Of a stretch of DNA of 40,137 nucleotides, positions 1-40,137 are shown piece after piece. Position 1 is the first letter of the stretch. Each line of letters begins with the position of its first letter. The DNA is taken from sequence record OX001577. One strand, written 5' to 3'. Under the pieces are notes generated by a model, which made no database searches, was not told the DNA's origin, and saw only the letters and a program-made list of their open reading frames with translations. This stretch comes from Escherichia phage vB_Eco_Mak. The translations under genes were made by a program, and so were the position numbers.

Positions 1-111
1 GATAATCAAGCAACACTGCTGGTCTTGTTGTACTACGCAACTGCAAATGTAGTCGGGACGATGAAACTGCTATCCCTAAAGTTCTTTAACAATCTGGTAT
101 AAAGCGCATGT

Positions 112-166
112 GTTGAGTTAGAAAGTGATTGACTCAAGGCTGCTGAATGTAGTAGCCTTTATGACA
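112..166 (+). promoter_or_regulatory. RNase III-type processing hairpin upstream of RNAP gene
   Basis: TCTTTAACAATCTGGTA...GTTGAGTTAGAAAGTGATTGACTCAAGGCTGCTGAATGTAGTAGCCTTTATGA resembles the remembered T7 R0.3 site; stem AAGGCTGCT/AGTAGCCTT. Confidence 0.5.
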
Positions 167-3453: not shown

Positions 3454-3509
3454 CAATAACTTAGGGTAGTCTGTAATGGGCTACCCTTTTGTCGTTTGTT
3501 AATGCCACT

Positions 3510-3533
3510 AATTAACACCCACTATTGGAATAT
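3510..3533 (+). promoter_or_regulatory. phage RNAP promoter (consensus copy)
   Basis: AATTAACACCCACTATTGGAAT; consensus core. Confidence 0.6.
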
Positions 3534-3543
3534 AATGACAATA

Positions 3544-3573
3544 ACACTAAGTCTATAAACATTAAGTCTATAA
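3544..3573 (+). repeat. tandem 15-bp direct repeat (ACAYTAAGTCTATAA x2), with further copies nearby
   Basis: ACACTAAGTCTATAA then ACATTAAGTCTATAA in tandem; related AACATTAAGTCTAAA at 3633..3647 and AACATTAAGTCTATA at 38870..38884. Confidence 0.6.
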
Positions 3574-3612
3574 CTTATTGTCTATACATTTTGTCTTATT
3601 GTTATATTAATT

Positions 3613-3635
3613 ATTTAACACCCACTATTGGAAAC
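3613..3635 (+). promoter_or_regulatory. phage RNAP promoter
   Basis: ATTTAACACCCACTATTGGAAAC, about 30 nt upstream of the methyltransferase ATG. Confidence 0.6.
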
Positions 3636-3664
3636 ATTAAGTCTAAACACTAAGAGGAAACATT

Positions 3665-4390
3665 ATGTTAGGTGGAGCACCATTTCAGATTGTACAACCT
3701 AAAGAGCCAGTGAAGTTCGGTGGATTAGGTCACGCTAATGTAGGCATAAAGTCATTACCTAAAGACCGTGGTGTATCATGGTCTGACTTCTATAAGGGTC
3801 GCTTAGGTCAGTCCTATGTTAGTCATGTGTACAAGAACTATAAGGTACATATTGAAGCTATTCGCAGATACATCATTCAGCTATCGCTCAGTAAGAACAG
3901 CTCAATCAAACCACTACGTGTAGTCGAAGCTGGTTGTGGTATCGGGTCTATCACACTGAACCTTGCTGATATGTCAGACCATAAGACAGTTATCTGCTCA
4001 GGCTTTGATGTGTCAGAAGGACAAGTTGTTAACTCTCGTGAGAACGCATTGCTTAACAATGTGGGTGACAGAGTGTCCTTTCATAAAGGTGACATCTTTA
4101 ATAGTGACGTATATAAAGATGCCCACATCATTCACTCTCATGGTGTCTTAGAACACTTCAGTGACGATGACATTATGAAAATCCTATTGACACAACTCAG
4201 TTCTCCTAACGTTCGGTATGTCATTCACTATGTACCACTGGAAGGATGGAAGACTCCCTCTTATGGTGATGAACGCCTGTTACCGCTGACACATTGGGTC
4301 AATGAGTTCGCTCCTACCCGTACCGTTGCGTTCAACGATGGTAAAGACGCTGTGCTAATCTGGGACGTTGAGTCTTTACTTCGCAATTAA
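3665..4390 (+). CDS. class I SAM-dependent methyltransferase (substrate unknown)
   Basis: 241-aa ORF with RBS AAGAGG 7 nt upstream. Contains a Rossmann-fold motif I (VVEAGCGIGSITLNL), an acidic residue after beta2 (GFDVSEG), and FHKGDIF / HSHGVLEHF motifs typical of small-molecule or RNA methyltransferases. Lies in an apparently AT-richer block preceded by two promoter copies. Confidence 0.75.
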   Translation: MLGGAPFQIVQPKEPVKFGGLGHANVGIKSLPKDRGVSWSDFYKGRLGQSYVSHVYKNYKVHIEAIRRYIIQLSLSKNSSIKPLRVVEAGCGIGSITLNLADMSDHKTVICSGFDVSEGQVVNSRENALLNNVGDRVSFHKGDIFNSDVYKDAHIIHSHGVLEHFSDDDIMKILLTQLSSPNVRYVIHYVPLEGWKTPSYGDERLLPLTHWVNEFAPTRTVAFNDGKDAVLIWDVESLLRN

Positions 4391-4408
4391 CACCCACTAT
4401 TGGAGAAC
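4385..4408 (+). promoter_or_regulatory. phage RNAP promoter
   Basis: AATTAACACCCACTATTGGAGAAC overlapping the methyltransferase stop, upstream of ligase. Confidence 0.7.
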
Positions 4409-4488
4409 ATCGTGTATGAACACTGCTGATATTCTCGCTATCAACTCTATGTTTCAATCCTTATACAAATCCATTGGAGGTAATTCAA

Positions 4489-5460
4489 ATGTTTACAATC
4501 AATCCGGCAAAGCCAGTAGCGTACAAAGAGTCAGCGATTCAGAAAGCTCTGGACAAGTCCGGTTCCCTAATCGCAGACCGCAAGTACGATGGAGTCCGTT
4601 GCCACATCGTGATTAAACCCACGGCTGACATCAATGGTCGTCCTGCTGCCCGTGCGTACTTCCTGAGTCGTACTAACAAGATGATTGCTGCCTTGCGTAG
4701 TGCTTGGTTGAGTAACGAGGAGCAGCTAGCCTTGGGTCAATTCCTGCAAGAGTCACGCTGGCCTGAAGGCATTGTGCTGGACGGGGAGGCGATGGTTAAA
4801 GGTATGGACTTCAATGCTTCTTCAGGTCGCCTGCGGTCAGACGCTCAGTTACCACTAAGTCAATTGACCTATGTGCTGTACGGTGTGTTGCCTGCTTCTG
4901 AGTTGGAAGCATCCGAGACTGCTGACTTGAGTCTGTCCAATGTGATGATTCAGGTTATCTCTCAAGTCACCATCCATCAGCTAAAGGAACTGCTGAAACC
5001 TATTGACTGGCAACTGGCTGAGTCATGGGACGTGTACGACATGGAGCAAATCAATGAGCTGTTTGAAGAACAGTTATCATTAGGCCGTGAAGGTCTGGTA
5101 CTTAAAGACCCTATGGCACCGTGGAAGCGCGGAAAGAAAACCGGATGGTGGAAGGTGAAGAACGAAGACACCATTGACGGTAATGTAGTTGGCGTAGTGT
5201 GGGGAACTGAAGGCAAGGCCAATGAAGGCAAAGTGATTGGCTTCGAGGTCTTACTAGAGAATGGCGTTGTGGTGAATGCCTGTGGTCTGACTCAAGACCA
5301 GATGGTTCGATTCACTAGCAACATCAAGCTGAACCCTGATTACTACAAAGATTGGGCTGTTCAGGTCAAGTTCATGGAACGTACACCTGATGGTTCACTG
5401 CGTCACCCTAGCTTTGACTGCTGGCGTGGCATGGCTGGACACGAAACGGAGAAAATGTAA
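4489..5460 (+). CDS. ATP-dependent DNA ligase (T7 gp1.3-like)
   Basis: Adenylation motif KYDGVRC, and LDGE..VKG..FN..SGRLRS, EGLVLKDP..WKRGKK.GWWKVK, EGKVIGFEVLLENG, TPDGSLRHPSF all match remembered T7 ligase. The T7 alignment starts at MFTINPAK (ATG 4489, GGAGG 8 nt upstream); the track ORF begins at TTG 4474. Confidence 0.9.
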   Translation: MFTINPAKPVAYKESAIQKALDKSGSLIADRKYDGVRCHIVIKPTADINGRPAARAYFLSRTNKMIAALRSAWLSNEEQLALGQFLQESRWPEGIVLDGEAMVKGMDFNASSGRLRSDAQLPLSQLTYVLYGVLPASELEASETADLSLSNVMIQVISQVTIHQLKELLKPIDWQLAESWDVYDMEQINELFEEQLSLGREGLVLKDPMAPWKRGKKTGWWKVKNEDTIDGNVVGVVWGTEGKANEGKVIGFEVLLENGVVVNACGLTQDQMVRFTSNIKLNPDYYKDWAVQVKFMERTPDGSLRHPSFDCWRGMAGHETEKM

Positions 5461-5526
5461 TGACTGTAGCTGTTATGTTCTGGGTTGTAGTCGGGCTGAG
5501 TATTGCAGCCTATGCGTCTTCCCATT

Positions 5527-5550
5527 AATTATCACCCACTATTGGAGAAC
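5527..5550 (+). promoter_or_regulatory. phage RNAP promoter-like element (variant)
   Basis: AATTATCACCCACTATTGGAGAAC (one mismatch). Confidence 0.5.
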
Positions 5551-5553
5551 ATC

Positions 5554-5670
5554 ATGGTTTATTTCCTATTGTTCACTGCTTGGTGCATCCTGTGGGTCTG
5601 CTCACGAGACGAACACCGTTGCAAATACTGTGGCGCTCCTTACTCTGAGTGCTTCTGTAAACATTCCTAA
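5554..5670 (+). CDS. possible 38-aa Cys-rich micro-protein
   Basis: Read by hand: ATG 5554 to TAA 5668..5670, MVYFLLFTAWCILWVCSRDEHRCKYCGAPYSECFCKHS. It sits behind the same promoter-leader arrangement (CTATTGGAGAACATC-ATG) as the kinase gene downstream. Below the track's size cutoff. Confidence 0.3.
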   Translation: MVYFLLFTAWCILWVCSRDEHRCKYCGAPYSECFCKHS

Positions 5671-5692
5671 TTAACCACCACTATTGGAGAAC
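5669..5692 (+). promoter_or_regulatory. phage RNAP promoter-like element (variant)
   Basis: AATTAACCACCACTATTGGAGAAC, 7 nt before the dNMP kinase ATG. Confidence 0.5.
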
Positions 5693-5698
5693 ATCATT

Positions 5699-6439
5699 AT
5701 GATTCATGTACATCTGCCAACAATCATTGGTATCTGCGCTCATGCACCACGTTCAGGTAAAGACACTCTGGCTGACTACATCGAGCGAGAAGCTGAGACC
5801 AAGGGTCTGCGCTATTTCCGTATTGCCTTCGGTGACTTGCTGCGTGAGGTAGTATCAACACTGTTCGGTATGAACTCTCGTGACTACGTTATGGCTGCTC
5901 TGCTGGGTTCCATGAAAGACGTAGCTCATGGTCGGTACAGTATCCGTAACCTAGAGAACGAATCCCTTAAAGAGTTCCTGATTGGAACCTTGGGATTAGA
6001 CCCAGACGAACCACGTTCCCCACGTTTCTATATGCAGCGTGTAGGCAACGACTACGTTAAGGGTCACTTAGGTCTTGAGAGCATGTGGGTTGACGCTGTG
6101 GGTACACAGATTACCACTCGCCTGTTGTACGGTAACGCTCCTGACTTGGTGATTATCACAGATGTCCGCTCACCTAATGAGTTCGACTATGTGACTGAAT
6201 GTGGGTTCTCGGTTGAAGTTAAGACTCAGGGCTTCCCTGCCTTGACTCACTCTGCTAAACCTGACACCTCTCACCCTGTAGAGAATCACCGCTTTGACTG
6301 TGACTTTGTGTTCACCAATGTGTATGGTGACATGCAGTCCCTTCAGTATCAGCTCCGTGAGTCTGGTCTGATTGATGCAGTCATTGAGCGTAACGAGATA
6401 TTGAAGCAACGTGTATTTGAACAGGAGGATTACCAGTGA
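5699..6439 (+). CDS. P-loop deoxynucleoside monophosphate kinase (T4 gp1-like)
   Basis: N-terminal P-loop APRSGKDTLADYI resembles T4 dNMP kinase (SGVKRSGKDTTADFI); ITDVRSPNEFDYV resembles T4 VPDTRQDHE. ATG 5699 follows promoter copy 5669..5692, whose GGAGAAC doubles as RBS. Track ORF starts at TTG 5684. Confidence 0.65.
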   Translation: MIHVHLPTIIGICAHAPRSGKDTLADYIEREAETKGLRYFRIAFGDLLREVVSTLFGMNSRDYVMAALLGSMKDVAHGRYSIRNLENESLKEFLIGTLGLDPDEPRSPRFYMQRVGNDYVKGHLGLESMWVDAVGTQITTRLLYGNAPDLVIITDVRSPNEFDYVTECGFSVEVKTQGFPALTHSAKPDTSHPVENHRFDCDFVFTNVYGDMQSLQYQLRESGLIDAVIERNEILKQRVFEQEDYQ

Positions 6440-6603
6440 AGCGATTCGTTATCCATCTTGAACGTGAAGGTTCCAATGAGGAAGAACGCACTGTTATCTT
6501 GGCGCGTGACCTAGACCATGCACTAGACAAAGCTCACTCTTTGTACGGTGAGGACGTGGTAACTCGTGTCCGTCCTGAATTAACACCCACTATTGGAAAC
6601 TAA
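6436..6603 (+). CDS. possible small protein (55 aa, GTG start)
   Basis: GTG 6436 overlaps the kinase stop (GTGA) and has a strong RBS (AGGAGG 6 nt upstream). Reads VKRFVIHLEREGSNEEERTVILARDLDHALDKAHSLYGEDVVTRVRPELTPTIGN. Its last codons are encoded by promoter copy 6578..6600. Not in the ORF track (under 60 aa). Confidence 0.4.
   Translation: MKRFVIHLEREGSNEEERTVILARDLDHALDKAHSLYGEDVVTRVRPELTPTIGN
6578..6600 (+). promoter_or_regulatory. phage RNAP promoter
   Basis: AATTAACACCCACTATTGGAAAC, followed by RNase III hairpin 6611..6656. Confidence 0.7.
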
Positions 6604-6610
6604 ACTCTAA

Positions 6611-6656
6611 GATAAAACTCAAGGTCATTCGCACAGAGTGGCCTTTATGATTTATC
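6611..6656 (+). promoter_or_regulatory. RNase III-type processing hairpin
   Basis: GATAAAACTCAAGGTCATTCGCACAGAGTGGCCTTTATGATTTATC, with outer stem GATAAA/TTTATC and the conserved core CAAGGTC...GTGGCCTTTATGA seen in T7 R sites. Confidence 0.6.
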
Positions 6657-6687
6657 TTTGTTCAATAAACAACCAATGAGGTAAACA

Positions 6688-6873
6688 ATGCGTAACCCTG
6701 AAGTAGTAAAGATTAAATCAAACAAGGCTCGCCGTTCAGACGAGGAGATGGAACTCATTAATGAGCGTAAGTTCAAAGGTGAGGTACGCCGCAAGGTTCG
6801 TGCTGCTAAGCGTGAACGTACTCGTTTGTGGGCTGAAGGTGAATACGAAGGAGGTGACCGCTATGCGCACTGA
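6688..6873 (+). CDS. small basic protein, hypothetical
   Basis: 61-aa ORF with RBS GAGG 7 nt upstream, immediately after an RNase III-type hairpin. Lys/Arg-rich. Confidence 0.5.
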   Translation: MRNPEVVKIKSNKARRSDEEMELINERKFKGEVRRKVRAAKRERTRLWAEGEYEGGDRYAH

Positions 6874-7176
6874 TAAAGGTTATTCAAACTTGCGTTACTT
6901 CTCACGCCGTAAGGACGCTGGGATGATGGGTGTCTTTTATAATCATGTGCTGACACAAAAGCAGCAGAAGAATATTGAGACTATCCTGTTCAAATCTGGT
7001 GACGATGGTTACAATGCCATCAAGTTACCTAACGGTGAGATTCTATTTCATCGTGAGTTCCTTGAGGCAACATTCAAGAAGGCTGTGTCTGTGTACGCAA
7101 GCACTGTCGATATGTCCATTTCATCCAGTCTAGCATTCAAGGCATTAGGCGAAGTTCTTGAACTACGAGGTGCATA

Positions 7177-7177
<1 letters not shown>
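6863..7177 (+). CDS. hypothetical protein
   Basis: Track ORF 6761..7177; the internal ATG 6863 has a strong RBS (GGAGGTG, 6 nt spacer) and overlaps the upstream stop by 11 nt, so it is the likelier start (104 aa). Confidence 0.5.
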
Positions 7178-9074
<1,897 letters not shown>

Positions 9075-17442: not shown

Positions 17443-19047
17443 ATGGCTGAAGTTAAACGTGAAGGTCTAGCTGCTGAAGGTGCAGCCAAGACATATGAGC
17501 GTTTGAAGAATGACCGTAACGACTACGTGACCCGTGCAGAGGACTGTGCCAAGTACACCATTCCTAGTCTGTTCCCTAAGGATTCAGACGATGGTGGTAC
17601 GAGTTATACGACTCCTTGGCAGTCCATTGGTGCTCGCGGTCTGAACAACATTAGCGCAAAGGTAAACCTAGCGTTGTTCCCTGTAGGTGCGCCTTTCTTC
17701 AAACTGAATATCTCTGAGCTAGAGCTGAAGCAAATCATCACCGATTCGTCTGCACTTCAAGATGTAGCACAAGGTCTGTCGATGGTTGAGCGTATTGTTC
17801 TTAGCTACATGGAGGCCAACGGTTATCGAACTTCTCTGGTTGAAGCTATTCGTCAACTCTTTGTTAGCGGTAACGTGCTGCTGTACGTGACCAATCCTGA
17901 CGAGATGATGGATGGTGAAATGGCTGGTCTGAAGGTCTACCGATTGCCGTCCTATGTAGTTGAACGAGATGGATTCGATAACGTCTTGCAGATTGTAGCA
18001 GTCGATAAGATTGCCCGCGTAGCGTTACCTGAAGACATCCAATCTGCTATCGCTGAGGAGACTACCGATGAAAACCTGACAGAAGAAGTCGAGATTTACA
18101 CTCACATCTACCGTAACTCTGAGACACAAATGTTCACAGTTTATCAGGAGATTGAGGGTGAAATCGTAGCTGGCTCTGAAGGTGAGTACCCATTGGATGC
18201 TTGCCCTTGGATTCCTGTACGTCTTATCAAGATGCCTAACGAGGACTATGGACGTTCGTTCGTAGAAGAATACCTCGGTGACTTGAAGTCATTGGAGGCT
18301 CTGTACGAGGCTATGATTAAGATGTCCATGATTGCCGCTAAGGTTCTGTTCATGGTTAACCCTAACGGACAGACTCAGGTTCGCCGTATGGCTAAGGCCA
18401 ACACAGGTGACTTTGTAGCTGGTCGTAAGGAAGACATCGGAGTATTCCAGTTAGAGAAACAACAGGACTTCAACACAGCGAAGATTGTAGCTGACACCAT
18501 TGAGGCTCGCTTGTCGTATGCCTTCATGTTGAACTCTGCGGTACAACGCGGTGGTGACCGTGTTACTGCTGAGGAGATTCGCTATGTGGCTGGTGAATTG
18601 GAGGACACTCTGGGTGGTATCTATTCGTTACTGTCCCAAGAGTTACAGATGCCTTTAGTCCGCATCCTGTTGCGTGTACTGGAAGCTACCTCGAAGATTC
18701 CTAACTTGCCTAAGGAAGCTGTTGAACCTGCTGTTGCTACTGGTCTGGAAGCTCTGGGTCGTGGTCATGACCTTGACAAGCTGAATATGTTCGTTAACGG
18801 TATTGCTACTCTGTCTGCAATCCAAGACGAAGACCTGAACATGCGTGACATTAAGATGCGCTACGCTAACTCTCTGGGTATGGACACTGCTGGTATGATT
18901 CTGACTCCTGAGGAGAAACAACAGAAGATGGCTGAAATGGCTCAACAACAGGCCATGATGCAAGGTGGTGCCGCTGCGGGTGGCGTAATGGGTCAAGCTG
19001 GTGGTCAAGCAATGGCTGAACAAGCTGCTCAGATGATGCAACAATAA
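17443..19047 (+). CDS. portal / head-tail connector protein (T7 gp8-like)
   Basis: 534 aa, the size and position of T7 gp8, with a Gln/Ala/Met-rich C-terminal tail (MAEMAQQQAMMQGG...QMMQQ). Sits immediately before the scaffold and capsid genes. Confidence 0.9.
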   Translation: MAEVKREGLAAEGAAKTYERLKNDRNDYVTRAEDCAKYTIPSLFPKDSDDGGTSYTTPWQSIGARGLNNISAKVNLALFPVGAPFFKLNISELELKQIITDSSALQDVAQGLSMVERIVLSYMEANGYRTSLVEAIRQLFVSGNVLLYVTNPDEMMDGEMAGLKVYRLPSYVVERDGFDNVLQIVAVDKIARVALPEDIQSAIAEETTDENLTEEVEIYTHIYRNSETQMFTVYQEIEGEIVAGSEGEYPLDACPWIPVRLIKMPNEDYGRSFVEEYLGDLKSLEALYEAMIKMSMIAAKVLFMVNPNGQTQVRRMAKANTGDFVAGRKEDIGVFQLEKQQDFNTAKIVADTIEARLSYAFMLNSAVQRGGDRVTAEEIRYVAGELEDTLGGIYSLLSQELQMPLVRILLRVLEATSKIPNLPKEAVEPAVATGLEALGRGHDLDKLNMFVNGIATLSAIQDEDLNMRDIKMRYANSLGMDTAGMILTPEEKQQKMAEMAQQQAMMQGGAAAGGVMGQAGGQAMAEQAAQMMQQ

Positions 19048-24433: not shown

Positions 24434-24464
24434 GAGGGTCACTATATTTAGTGGCTCTCTTTTA
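24434..24464 (+). terminator. stable hairpin with U-tract between the promoter and the kinase gene (terminator or attenuator candidate)
   Basis: GAGGGTCACT-ATATTT-AGTGGCTCTC (10-bp stem with G-U pairs) followed by TTTTA. Confidence 0.35.
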
Positions 24465-24477
24465 TGGAGGAATTTTA

Positions 24478-25107
24478 ATGAGAATTGTAGTTATTGAAGC
24501 TAACATTGGTGCAGGTAAATCCACTTTGTTACAACCTCTTGTGGATGAACTTCAGCTATGGTCTGGTGAAGATTGGGACTTAGTGATTGAACCAGTAGAC
24601 CAAGACCCTGAGTTCCACCGTCTGTTGAAAGAAATGATTGCCGATATGTCTAACCCAGACAAGCGTATTCGTTTCCAGATGTACCTGACCGAGCAGCGTC
24701 AACAACTGTTAAAGAACTTACCTGATGGAAACTATGTCGTTGAACGCTCTCTGTTCAGTGACCTTGTGTTCTCCCAGATGTATTTCTTAACGACTGAGAA
24801 ACCTTCTGCCGAGTACATGAATTATTACTACAACATCAAGGAACGTCTGAAAGACTACCCTCAGATTGATTGTGTCGTGTACTTAGACCGTGACCCTGCG
24901 TCTTGCCATGAGTCCATCATCAAGCGTGGTCGTGAAGGTGAGCACTATGAGATGCACTATCTGGAAGACCTAAAGCGTTTCCACGATGCGTGTCTACCTC
25001 AGATTGCTCGTGAGTATAACACTAAGCTAATCACTGTGGACTTAGGTAAGACCTATGCTCTGCCTTCTGTGATTGCTGCTGATGTAATGGAGCACTTATA
25101 TGGCTAA
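24478..25107 (+). CDS. deoxynucleoside kinase (dCK/dGK/TK2 family)
   Basis: P-loop IEANIGAGKSTL, ERS motif (VVERSLFSD) and a DRDP...C....IIKRGREGE lid motif characteristic of deoxyribonucleoside kinases. ATG 24478 has GGAGG 7 nt upstream; track ORF begins at GTG 24451. Confidence 0.7.
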   Translation: MRIVVIEANIGAGKSTLLQPLVDELQLWSGEDWDLVIEPVDQDPEFHRLLKEMIADMSNPDKRIRFQMYLTEQRQQLLKNLPDGNYVVERSLFSDLVFSQMYFLTTEKPSAEYMNYYYNIKERLKDYPQIDCVVYLDRDPASCHESIIKRGREGEHYEMHYLEDLKRFHDACLPQIAREYNTKLITVDLGKTYALPSVIAADVMEHLYG

Positions 25108-38853: not shown

Positions 38854-38948
38854 TACGACAATAAGAGGGAACATTAAGTCTATAGACACTAGGAGAGTCG
38901 ACCTTAGAGTAGGCACTCAGTCTGACCTTAGTGTTCCCTCTTTGTCTT

Positions 38949-40010: not shown

Positions 40011-40137
40011 GATAATCAAGCAACACTGCTGGTCTTGTTGTACTACGCAACTGCAAATGTAGTCGGGACGATGAAACTGCTATCCCTAAAGTTCTTTAAC
40101 AATCTGGTATAAAGCGCATGTGTTGAGTTAGAAAGTG
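40011..40137. repeat. exact duplicate of window positions 1..127 (probable assembly wrap-around of a circularly permuted sequence)
   Basis: Positions 40011..40137 are identical to 1..127 by direct comparison. The duplication lies between the gp0.6-like gene and the RNAP gene, not where T7-type terminal repeats reside. Confidence 0.8.

Follow-up and report, generated by a model that had tools for sequence, protein, structure and literature searches.

Escherichia phage vB_Eco_Mak (OX001577) carries a locus, at positions 5527 to 6439 of the 40,137-nucleotide (nt) stretch of DNA analysed here (the window), in which two copies of a promoter-like unit lie 142 bp apart, the first preceding a tiny cysteine-rich open reading frame (ORF) and the second an ORF of 246 amino acids. 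This arrangement raises the questions of what the two genes encode and whether the repeated unit records a recent event. We consider it very probable that the locus is an ordinary middle-gene (class II) block of a T7-like phage, corresponding to T7 genes 1.3 to 2, and that it holds two promoters for the phage's own RNA polymerase (RNAP), a conserved cysteine micro-protein and a T4-type deoxynucleoside monophosphate (dNMP) kinase, in a layout that is old.

The window is a complete T7-like phage genome (Autographiviridae, Studiervirinae). It differs from vB_Eco_Bam (OW991346.2) at 26 positions across the whole genome, and a 3.1-kb query (4300..7400) is 99.5% identical both to vB_Eco_Bam and to vB_Eco_Titus. 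Bam, Titus and Mak form one species in a published comparison, in which their nearest relatives are the group of Aeromonas phage T7-Ah and the Vibrio Chatterjeevirus (ICP3) group (PMC10974468).

The 246-amino-acid kinase

The ORF at 5699..6439 (plus strand) encodes 246 amino acids with RSGKDT at residues 18-23. The first-pass annotation of this DNA had assigned the product to the T4 gene 1-type kinases from its P-loop, and profile searches bore this out. We found that PHROG 139 (deoxynucleoside monophosphate kinase) matched the window kinase at 4e-30. A profile of 11 homologues had a sole significant match in the PDB, T4 dNMP kinase (1dek_A, 4.1e-10, about 175 profile positions), the next match lying at 0.058; the alignment with 1DEK covers the SGKDT, SxRxxMQxxGxD and DxRxxxE blocks. 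The P-loop region, APRSGKDT at residues 16-23, aligned to T4 KRSGKDT, and the family alignment shows no variation at its G20, K21, D22 and T23. Similarly, an AlphaFold2 (AF2) model of the kinase (pLDDT 85.2) had 1dek_A as its best PDB match in Foldseek (E 2e-6, TM 0.56). From these results, we conclude that the 246-amino-acid protein is, by its sequence and modelled fold, a homologue of T4 gp1 and a member of the T4 gene 1-type dNMP kinase family.

Homologues of the kinase occur in 238 phage records, mostly those of T7-like phages of Pseudomonas, Vibrio, Dickeya and Aeromonas, and many are annotated as dNMP kinase. The Pfam DNMK family, PF21448, is precomputed on all eight of the eight database homologues, and in the listed Pseudomonas records with an annotated flank an RNAP-inhibitor gene adjoins the kinase. 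In the JELG-KS1 paper, the Titus gene had already been taken as the analogue.

Several observations count against this assignment. The window kinase itself scored 26.4 bits with PF21448, 0.7 below the gathering cut-off of 27.1; a single-sequence PDB search with the kinase gave no matches; the Walker A motif lacks its canonical first glycine; and the substrate range is carried over by analogy from T4. A search of NCBIfam with the kinase returned noise only. The protein could instead be a P-loop kinase that acts on something other than dNMPs, resembling dephospho-coenzyme A (CoA) kinase or phosphomevalonate kinase, or it could be a virion structural protein; both ideas seem to us improbable. Dephospho-CoA kinases were the second-best fold matches (1.7e-5 to 5e-4), and phosphomevalonate kinase has an SGKD P-loop weakly in common with the protein (the match at 0.058), which together with the Pfam score slightly below threshold would fit a different substrate, but T4 dNMP kinase led both the profile and the fold comparison, PHROG 139 matched strongly, and the gene has DNA-metabolism genes around it and takes the place that the nucleotide kinase has in T7. 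The structural alternative derives from the records of Titus (L002, 1047..1787), PZL-Ah152 and PZL-Ah8, which name the homologue 'virion structural protein' (the first two being the GenBank records that favour this alternative), but no search returned anything structural.

As a member of the dNMP kinase family, the predicted enzyme would most likely use ATP to convert dNMPs, freed from host DNA by phage nucleases, to deoxynucleoside diphosphates (dNDPs) for phage DNA synthesis. Both the reaction (dNMP + ATP to dNDP) and the role in recycling host dNMPs are suggested by analogy with T4 and T7.

The first-pass annotation had also set the protein apart from the T7 gp1.7 nucleotide kinase, and we found no resemblance between them: gp1.7, itself without a Walker A motif, gave a BLASTP E value of 0.73 over 14 residues, and tblastn of gp1.7 against the whole window gave a best E value of 0.12, revealing no gp1.7 homologue there. 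On these grounds we rejected gp1.7 as a homologue of the window kinase. Because the job predicted for the kinase is done in T7 by the unrelated gp1.7, the T4-type kinase appears to be a non-orthologous replacement of gp1.7 in the same slot. T7 gp1.7 has nucleotide kinase activity, and it is reported to activate Avs5 (PMC11897194); which of the two proteins occupies the slot could matter for defences that sense gp1.7, such as Avs5.

A deoxynucleoside kinase (PF01712, 1e-20), encoded at 24451..25107 (plus strand) behind promoter p24405, is the window's second nucleotide-salvage kinase. It sits in the structural-gene block, with tail tubular protein B on one side and the internal virion proteins on the other. 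The deoxynucleoside kinase and the dNMP kinase would carry out two consecutive salvage steps.

The cysteine-rich micro-ORF

The ORF at 5554..5670 (plus strand) encodes 38 amino acids (MVYFLLFTAWCILWVCSRDEHRCKYCGAPYSECFCKHS) and is cysteine-rich and N-terminally hydrophobic, as first described; its conservation was checked, and we found homologues across lineages as well as synonymous-biased substitutions in its frame. The protein matched phrog_37734 at 4.7e-5, and six of ten collected relatives match that family (best E 1.6e-33). The relatives comprise ICP3 orf8, its N4 counterpart, proteins of T7-Ah, PZL-Ah152 and phiA014S, and the metagenomic proteins P0010, P0012, P0015, P0016 and P0022, plus a shorter version in metagenomic phage L006. 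Their identity to the window micro-protein is 22-45% (33-36% for ICP3 orf8 and T7-Ah). In the alignment, a hydrophobic N-terminus is followed by CxxCGxPxxxCxC, with C23, C33 and C35 invariant and C26, G27 and P29 nearly so. A HMMER scan of 1.84 billion representative proteins found seven small relatives only, and the large multi-repeat cysteine proteins P0013, P0014 and others were judged to be repeat-motif matches and were not counted as relatives. Pfam and NCBIfam searches with the micro-ORFs gave no match beyond noise.

The position of the gene is conserved as well. A homologue of the micro-ORF lies between ligase and dNMP kinase in all relatives examined; likewise, all three metagenomic contigs that were looked up (P0012 = L010, P0022 = L035, P0016 = L036) are T7-like, about 40 kb long, and carry the gene between ligase and DNMK kinase. 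Codon differences between close relatives point to the same frame. In the cysteine frame, ICP3 and VP4 differ by 9 synonymous and 4 non-synonymous changes, against 0-1 synonymous in the other frames; ICP3 and N4 differ by 5 synonymous and 1 non-synonymous, against 0 synonymous in the others; and the window and L030, a relative with a 95% kinase, differ by 3 synonymous and 1 non-synonymous, against 0 in the others. These comparative data indicate that the 38-amino-acid ORF is a real conserved coding gene.

Three observations sit less easily with this conclusion. The L006 copy has no clear hydrophobic segment; VP4 has an arginine at the second cysteine; and the second version of the Bam record (OW991346.2) and the Titus record (OX090892.1) lack one G of the ATGG at 5554..5557, with the result that the ATG opens another, non-conserved frame, in which BAMTRB_007 and TITUS_002 are annotated. 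The missing G reflects a sequencing error common to both records or else a fresh natural inactivation, and it suggests, together with the arginine in VP4, that the micro-protein may be dispensable. It also gives substance to the view that the ORF is no gene, the 142-bp interval being a mere promoter spacer or the alternative frame of Bam and Titus, in which annotators did call ORFs, being the true product; the lack of a Pfam or NCBIfam match and the low AF2 confidence for the cysteine part point the same way. We regard this as very unlikely, in that the cysteine frame is kept at the protein level across lineages with its invariant or nearly invariant Cys, Gly and Pro residues, matches to phrog_37734 extend to most of the collected members, the synonymous bias is found in that frame only, every difference is non-synonymous in the Bam/Titus frame, synteny is conserved, and GGAG stands 6 nt before the ATG. 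The annotation of two records is corrected by these results: the kinase is 'hypothetical' in Bam and 'virion structural protein' in Titus, and the frame of the micro-ORF is wrong in both.

What the gene product might do is suggested by its architecture. AF2 predicted a helix at residues 2-19 and gave low confidence for the cysteine part. The hydropathy of the N-terminal 15-mer is 2.2-3.7 in every member but L006, and in the window and T7-Ah micro-proteins the helix is followed by basic residues. Given the helix, the hydropathy and these basic residues, the N-terminal helix of the micro-protein most likely serves as its anchor in the inner membrane, in an N-out/C-in orientation, with a putative cytoplasmic four-cysteine knuckle; this knuckle would probably bind zinc. 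More tentatively, the 38-amino-acid protein may found a class of phage micro-proteins, each an inner-membrane-anchored Cys4 (zinc) knuckle with a host membrane-associated target and a functional counterpart of T7 gp1.5, retained beside the ligase and dNMP kinase genes within one T7-like clade (the Escherichia Bam group, the Aeromonas T7-Ah group and the Vibrio ICP3 group). We hold this reading to be possible and rather doubtful. Expression of T7 gp1.5 causes a growth defect that is suppressed by stringent-like RNAP alleles (PMC13483052), and such tiny genes can thus be active.

Other identities for the micro-protein were considered and set aside. T7 gp1.5 was rejected as a homologue, as no BLASTP alignment was obtained at E<=100. 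The UniRef name of the PZL-Ah152 homologue, 'FeoB-associated Cys-rich membrane protein', did not hold up (no such family in Pfam/NCBIfam, 6 members, E<=10); the likeness to such proteins is one of general layout only, a transmembrane segment and a cysteine-rich tail. Weak matches to HNH endonuclease, Lar, Sui1 and the Rad50 hook were due to the CxxC/CPFCG knuckle alone. A lipoprotein was rejected too: the window micro-protein has no lipobox, whereas T7 gp1.5 has a lipobox-like IVGC motif. The kinase and the promoters belong to known kinds, and only the Cys4 micro-protein offers discovery; conserved and probably membrane-bound, it is the locus's sole unexplored element and is tractable for small-protein studies.

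Promoter repeats and the age of the layout

The two copies of the repeat begin at 5527 and 5669, and both read ...CACTATTGGAGAACATC, as the first-pass annotation had it; a start codon follows each, the ATG coming immediately after the first copy and after ATT in the second. Its further claim, that each unit is a promoter with a ribosome-binding site and start codon behind it, agrees with what we found: the motif is a multi-copy one, and GGAG precedes the ATG. A scan with CACTATTGGARAAC (<=2 mismatches) gave 13 sites in the window against 0.5 expected, on the plus strand exclusively. The 13 aligned sites have the consensus AATTAACACCCACTATTGGAGA, with 14 invariant columns, and the 5527 and 5669 copies are two of them. 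The promoter, which can be written AATTAACACCCACTATT followed by GGAGA, resembles the annotated phage-specific promoters of ICP3 (TAATTAACCCACACTATAGGGAA) and is also near the T3 consensus, AATTAACCCTCACTAAAGGGAGA. In view of these two resemblances and of the T7-type single-subunit RNAP gene encoded in the window genome (PF00940), we conclude that the repeats are promoters of the phage's own RNAP.

Alignment to T7 and T3 promoters would put +1 at the initial G of GGAG (G5544 in the first promoter, G5686 in the second). From -17 to +6, the first promoter (5527..5549) reads AATTATCACCCACTATT followed by GGAGAA and the second (5669..5691) AATTAACCACCACTATT followed by GGAGAA. The leader at the first is the 10-nt GGAGAACATC (5544..5553), with GGAG at its extreme 5' end; that at the second is the 13-nt GGAGAACATCATT (5686..5698). 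We propose that the phage's single-subunit RNAP binds both repeats and would initiate at the first G of GGAGAAC. The mRNA from 5544 would then start 5'-GGAGAACAUC-AUG, with a 10-nt leader, and that from 5686 would start 5'-GGAGAACAUCAUU-AUG, with a 13-nt leader. With +1 placed at GGAG, promoter-initiated mRNAs would start with their own Shine-Dalgarno sequence, the first transcribed bases GGAG serving both purposes. On the upstream side, the TAA of a 22-amino-acid ORF (5526..5528) and that of the micro-ORF (5668..5670) each overlap the next promoter. A host promoter scan found no sigma-70-like sites above chance in 4300..7400, and scans for host promoters and terminators found nothing above chance inside 5527-6439. 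This compact promoter, ribosome-binding site and start codon design could serve engineering with this phage's polymerase.

The first-pass annotation had taken the two units as a sign of recent local duplication or cassette insertion. This is the part of it that did not survive. Aligning the two promoter-leader units showed that similarity is confined to 30 nt (the 23-bp promoter and a 7-nt part of the leader), with no duplication in the flanks. A comparable layout was found elsewhere. In Aeromonas phage T7-Ah, ...ATTAACCCTGACTATAGGAGTCCCTATG precedes a 46-amino-acid cysteine-rich ORF and, about 140 bp on, ...ATTAACCCTGACTATAGGAGTTGTTATG precedes a kinase that is 37% identical to that of the window. 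Metagenomic phage L006 has three promoter modules in series (micro-ORF, gp2-like gene, kinase), and L007, L035 and L036 show the same promoter, ribosome-binding site and start design. Since the layout is common to T7, T7-Ah and the metagenomic relatives, we conclude from these sequences that it is ancestral to the group and did not arise by recent duplication.

One feature tells against this conclusion. The GGAGAACATC leader is exact in three neighbouring promoters (4385, 5527 and 5669, the first of these copies spanning 4385..4414 before the ligase) and absent from the other ten, and some local homogenisation may have occurred. Gene order also differs among relatives: a gp2-like gene precedes the kinase in L006, L010, L035, L036 and phiA014S, and follows it in the window and T7-Ah. 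Because gene order between promoters varies in this way, it is plausible that promoter-bounded genes were reshuffled over long evolutionary times, a weaker form of the cassette idea. Separately, the differences from Bam cluster in 5329..5556, which holds 14 of the 26; those in the ligase are without exception synonymous, as are most of those in the 22-amino-acid ORF, and the patch, which ends at the first promoter and start codon, looks like a promoter-bounded recombination patch. That the two promoter-leader-ATG units go back to a local duplication of recent date, or to the recent insertion of a cassette, gains something from the shared leader, the varying gene order and this patch, but is highly improbable, as what is repeated is 30 nt of a promoter present throughout the genome, the flanks are dissimilar, the unrelated micro-ORF and kinase sequences mean that no gene was duplicated, and the two-promoter layout around a micro-ORF, found in T7 and T7-Ah too, is older than these lineages.

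Several elements near other promoters were observed on the plus strand. A strong terminator-like hairpin at 3463..3487 (11-bp stem and T tract) lies about 20 nt before the block's first phage promoter, whose -17 is at 3510. As a candidate terminator of early (host-RNAP) transcription, it would put all downstream genes under phage RNAP. Promoter p6588 is followed, about 25 nt past its inferred start, by a hairpin with a 10-bp stem (6621..6645) that may stabilise the 5' end of the mRNA or serve as a site of RNase III type. Four copies of the motif A[CT]TAAGTCTATAAACA, against 0.08 expected, lie at 3545..3651 and 38872..38888, each just downstream of a phage promoter in AT-rich DNA; the motif may be a replication origin or an RNA-processing element.

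Neighbouring genes and comparison with T7 and T4

The block as a whole, on the plus strand throughout, runs in the order ligase, 22-amino-acid hydrophobic ORF, promoter, 38-amino-acid micro-ORF, promoter, dNMP kinase and gp2-type inhibitor. A phage RNAP promoter at 4385..4407, in the position of T7 phi1.3, has its GGAGAACATC start in common with the 5527 and 5669 promoters and precedes the ATP-dependent DNA ligase at 4489..5460, the equivalent of T7 gene 1.3 (PF01068/PF17879; phrog_114, 4e-79). The likely start of the ligase is the ATG at 4489, which is preceded by GGAGG. The beginning of the ligase gene is overlapped by a 66-codon frame at 4416..4616, whose ATG stands 13 nt past the start inferred for promoter p4395; this is the frame of the annotated BAMTRB_005, and we found no evidence that the overlapping ORF is real.

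The 22-amino-acid ORF (MTVAVMFWVVVGLSIAAYASSH), at 5460..5528, is hydrophobic by its hydropathy. Its start codon shares bases with the ligase stop (TAATG), and it ends in a TAA within the next promoter. Compared with Bam, it has 8 nucleotide differences; 6 of these are synonymous and 2 are conservative, and for this reason the ORF is probably a real micro-gene. By position it is the analogue of T7 gene 1.4, and neither Bam nor Titus has it annotated. On the other side of the kinase, a 55-amino-acid gp2-type host RNA polymerase inhibitor is encoded at 6436..6603 (PF16857, 1.7e-8; phrog_1307, 2.4e-9). It begins with a GTG that shares bases with the kinase stop (GTGA), and the 3' end of the gene extends through the next phage RNAP promoter, a GGAAAC variant found by the motif scan at 6578..6600. 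A search of Rfam with 4300..7400 gave no match.

Farther away, a SAM-dependent methyltransferase (PF13847/PF13649) is encoded at 3665..4390 (plus strand), behind a tandem pair of promoters with CACTATT cores beginning at 3520 and 3623, 103 bp apart. The ends of the window, 1..127 and 40011..40137, are an identical 127-bp direct repeat, and the genome is recorded in a permuted order that opens with the RNAP gene and has the early region at its other end. The second version of the Bam record has a tandem copy of about 127 bp near its 18,740-19,000, inside or after the portal gene.

The closest parallel to the promoter layout is that of T7 itself. T7 phi1.5 has its +1 at 7778 and is followed by the ATG of gene 1.5 at 7791; phi1.6 has its +1 at 7895, 117 bp on, and is followed by the ATG of gene 1.6 at 7906. 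Both promoters read ...CACTAAAGGAG, with the ATG 11-13 nt later, and the TAA stops of T7 genes 1.4 and 1.5 form the first bases of the next promoter, just as in the window. The two systems thus have in common promoters about 120-140 bp apart, GGAG as Shine-Dalgarno sequence, leaders of 10-13 nt and a tiny hydrophobic ORF in between. They differ in the promoter sequence, which is T3/ICP3-like in the window (AATTAACACCCACTATT) and TAATACGACTCACTAAA in T7, and in what the second promoter drives: the kinase directly in the window, whereas T7 phi1.6 precedes gene 1.6.

The product of T7 gene 1.5 (29 amino acids, MMYLMPLLIVIVGCLALHCSDDDMPDGHA) has a hydrophobic N-terminus and lacks the Cys4 motif, and it is a positional and compositional analogue only of the 38-amino-acid protein. 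The latter is like the members of phrog_37734, ICP3 orf8 and T7-Ah QOC54740 in its hydrophobic N-terminus, its CxxCGxPxxxCxC tail, its length (38-48 amino acids across the group) and its position between ligase and kinase. Unlike the window micro-ORF, ICP3 orf8 lacks a dedicated promoter, and it is coupled to the ligase.

T4 gp1 recycles host-derived dNMPs. The window kinase resembles it (1DEK/1DEL) in the (R)SGKDT P-loop and in the aligned NMP-site blocks, and the T4 enzyme is the best fold match of the window kinase. It differs from T4 gp1 in that the two are about 16% identical in the structural alignment, the first Walker A glycine is replaced, and kinases of the Bam group have an extra C-terminal helix of about 30 amino acids. 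Its gene also stands in a T7-like genome and not a T4-like one, and the hydroxymethyl-dCMP specificity of the T4 enzyme would not be expected of it. With T7 gp1.7, by contrast, it has in common a slot, after the ligase and small hydrophobic genes and before the gp2 RNAP inhibitor, and a presumed role in converting dNMP to dNDP. The two have no detectable sequence similarity, and gp1.7 is without a Walker A motif; the window kinase and T7 gp1.7 are analogues, not homologues.

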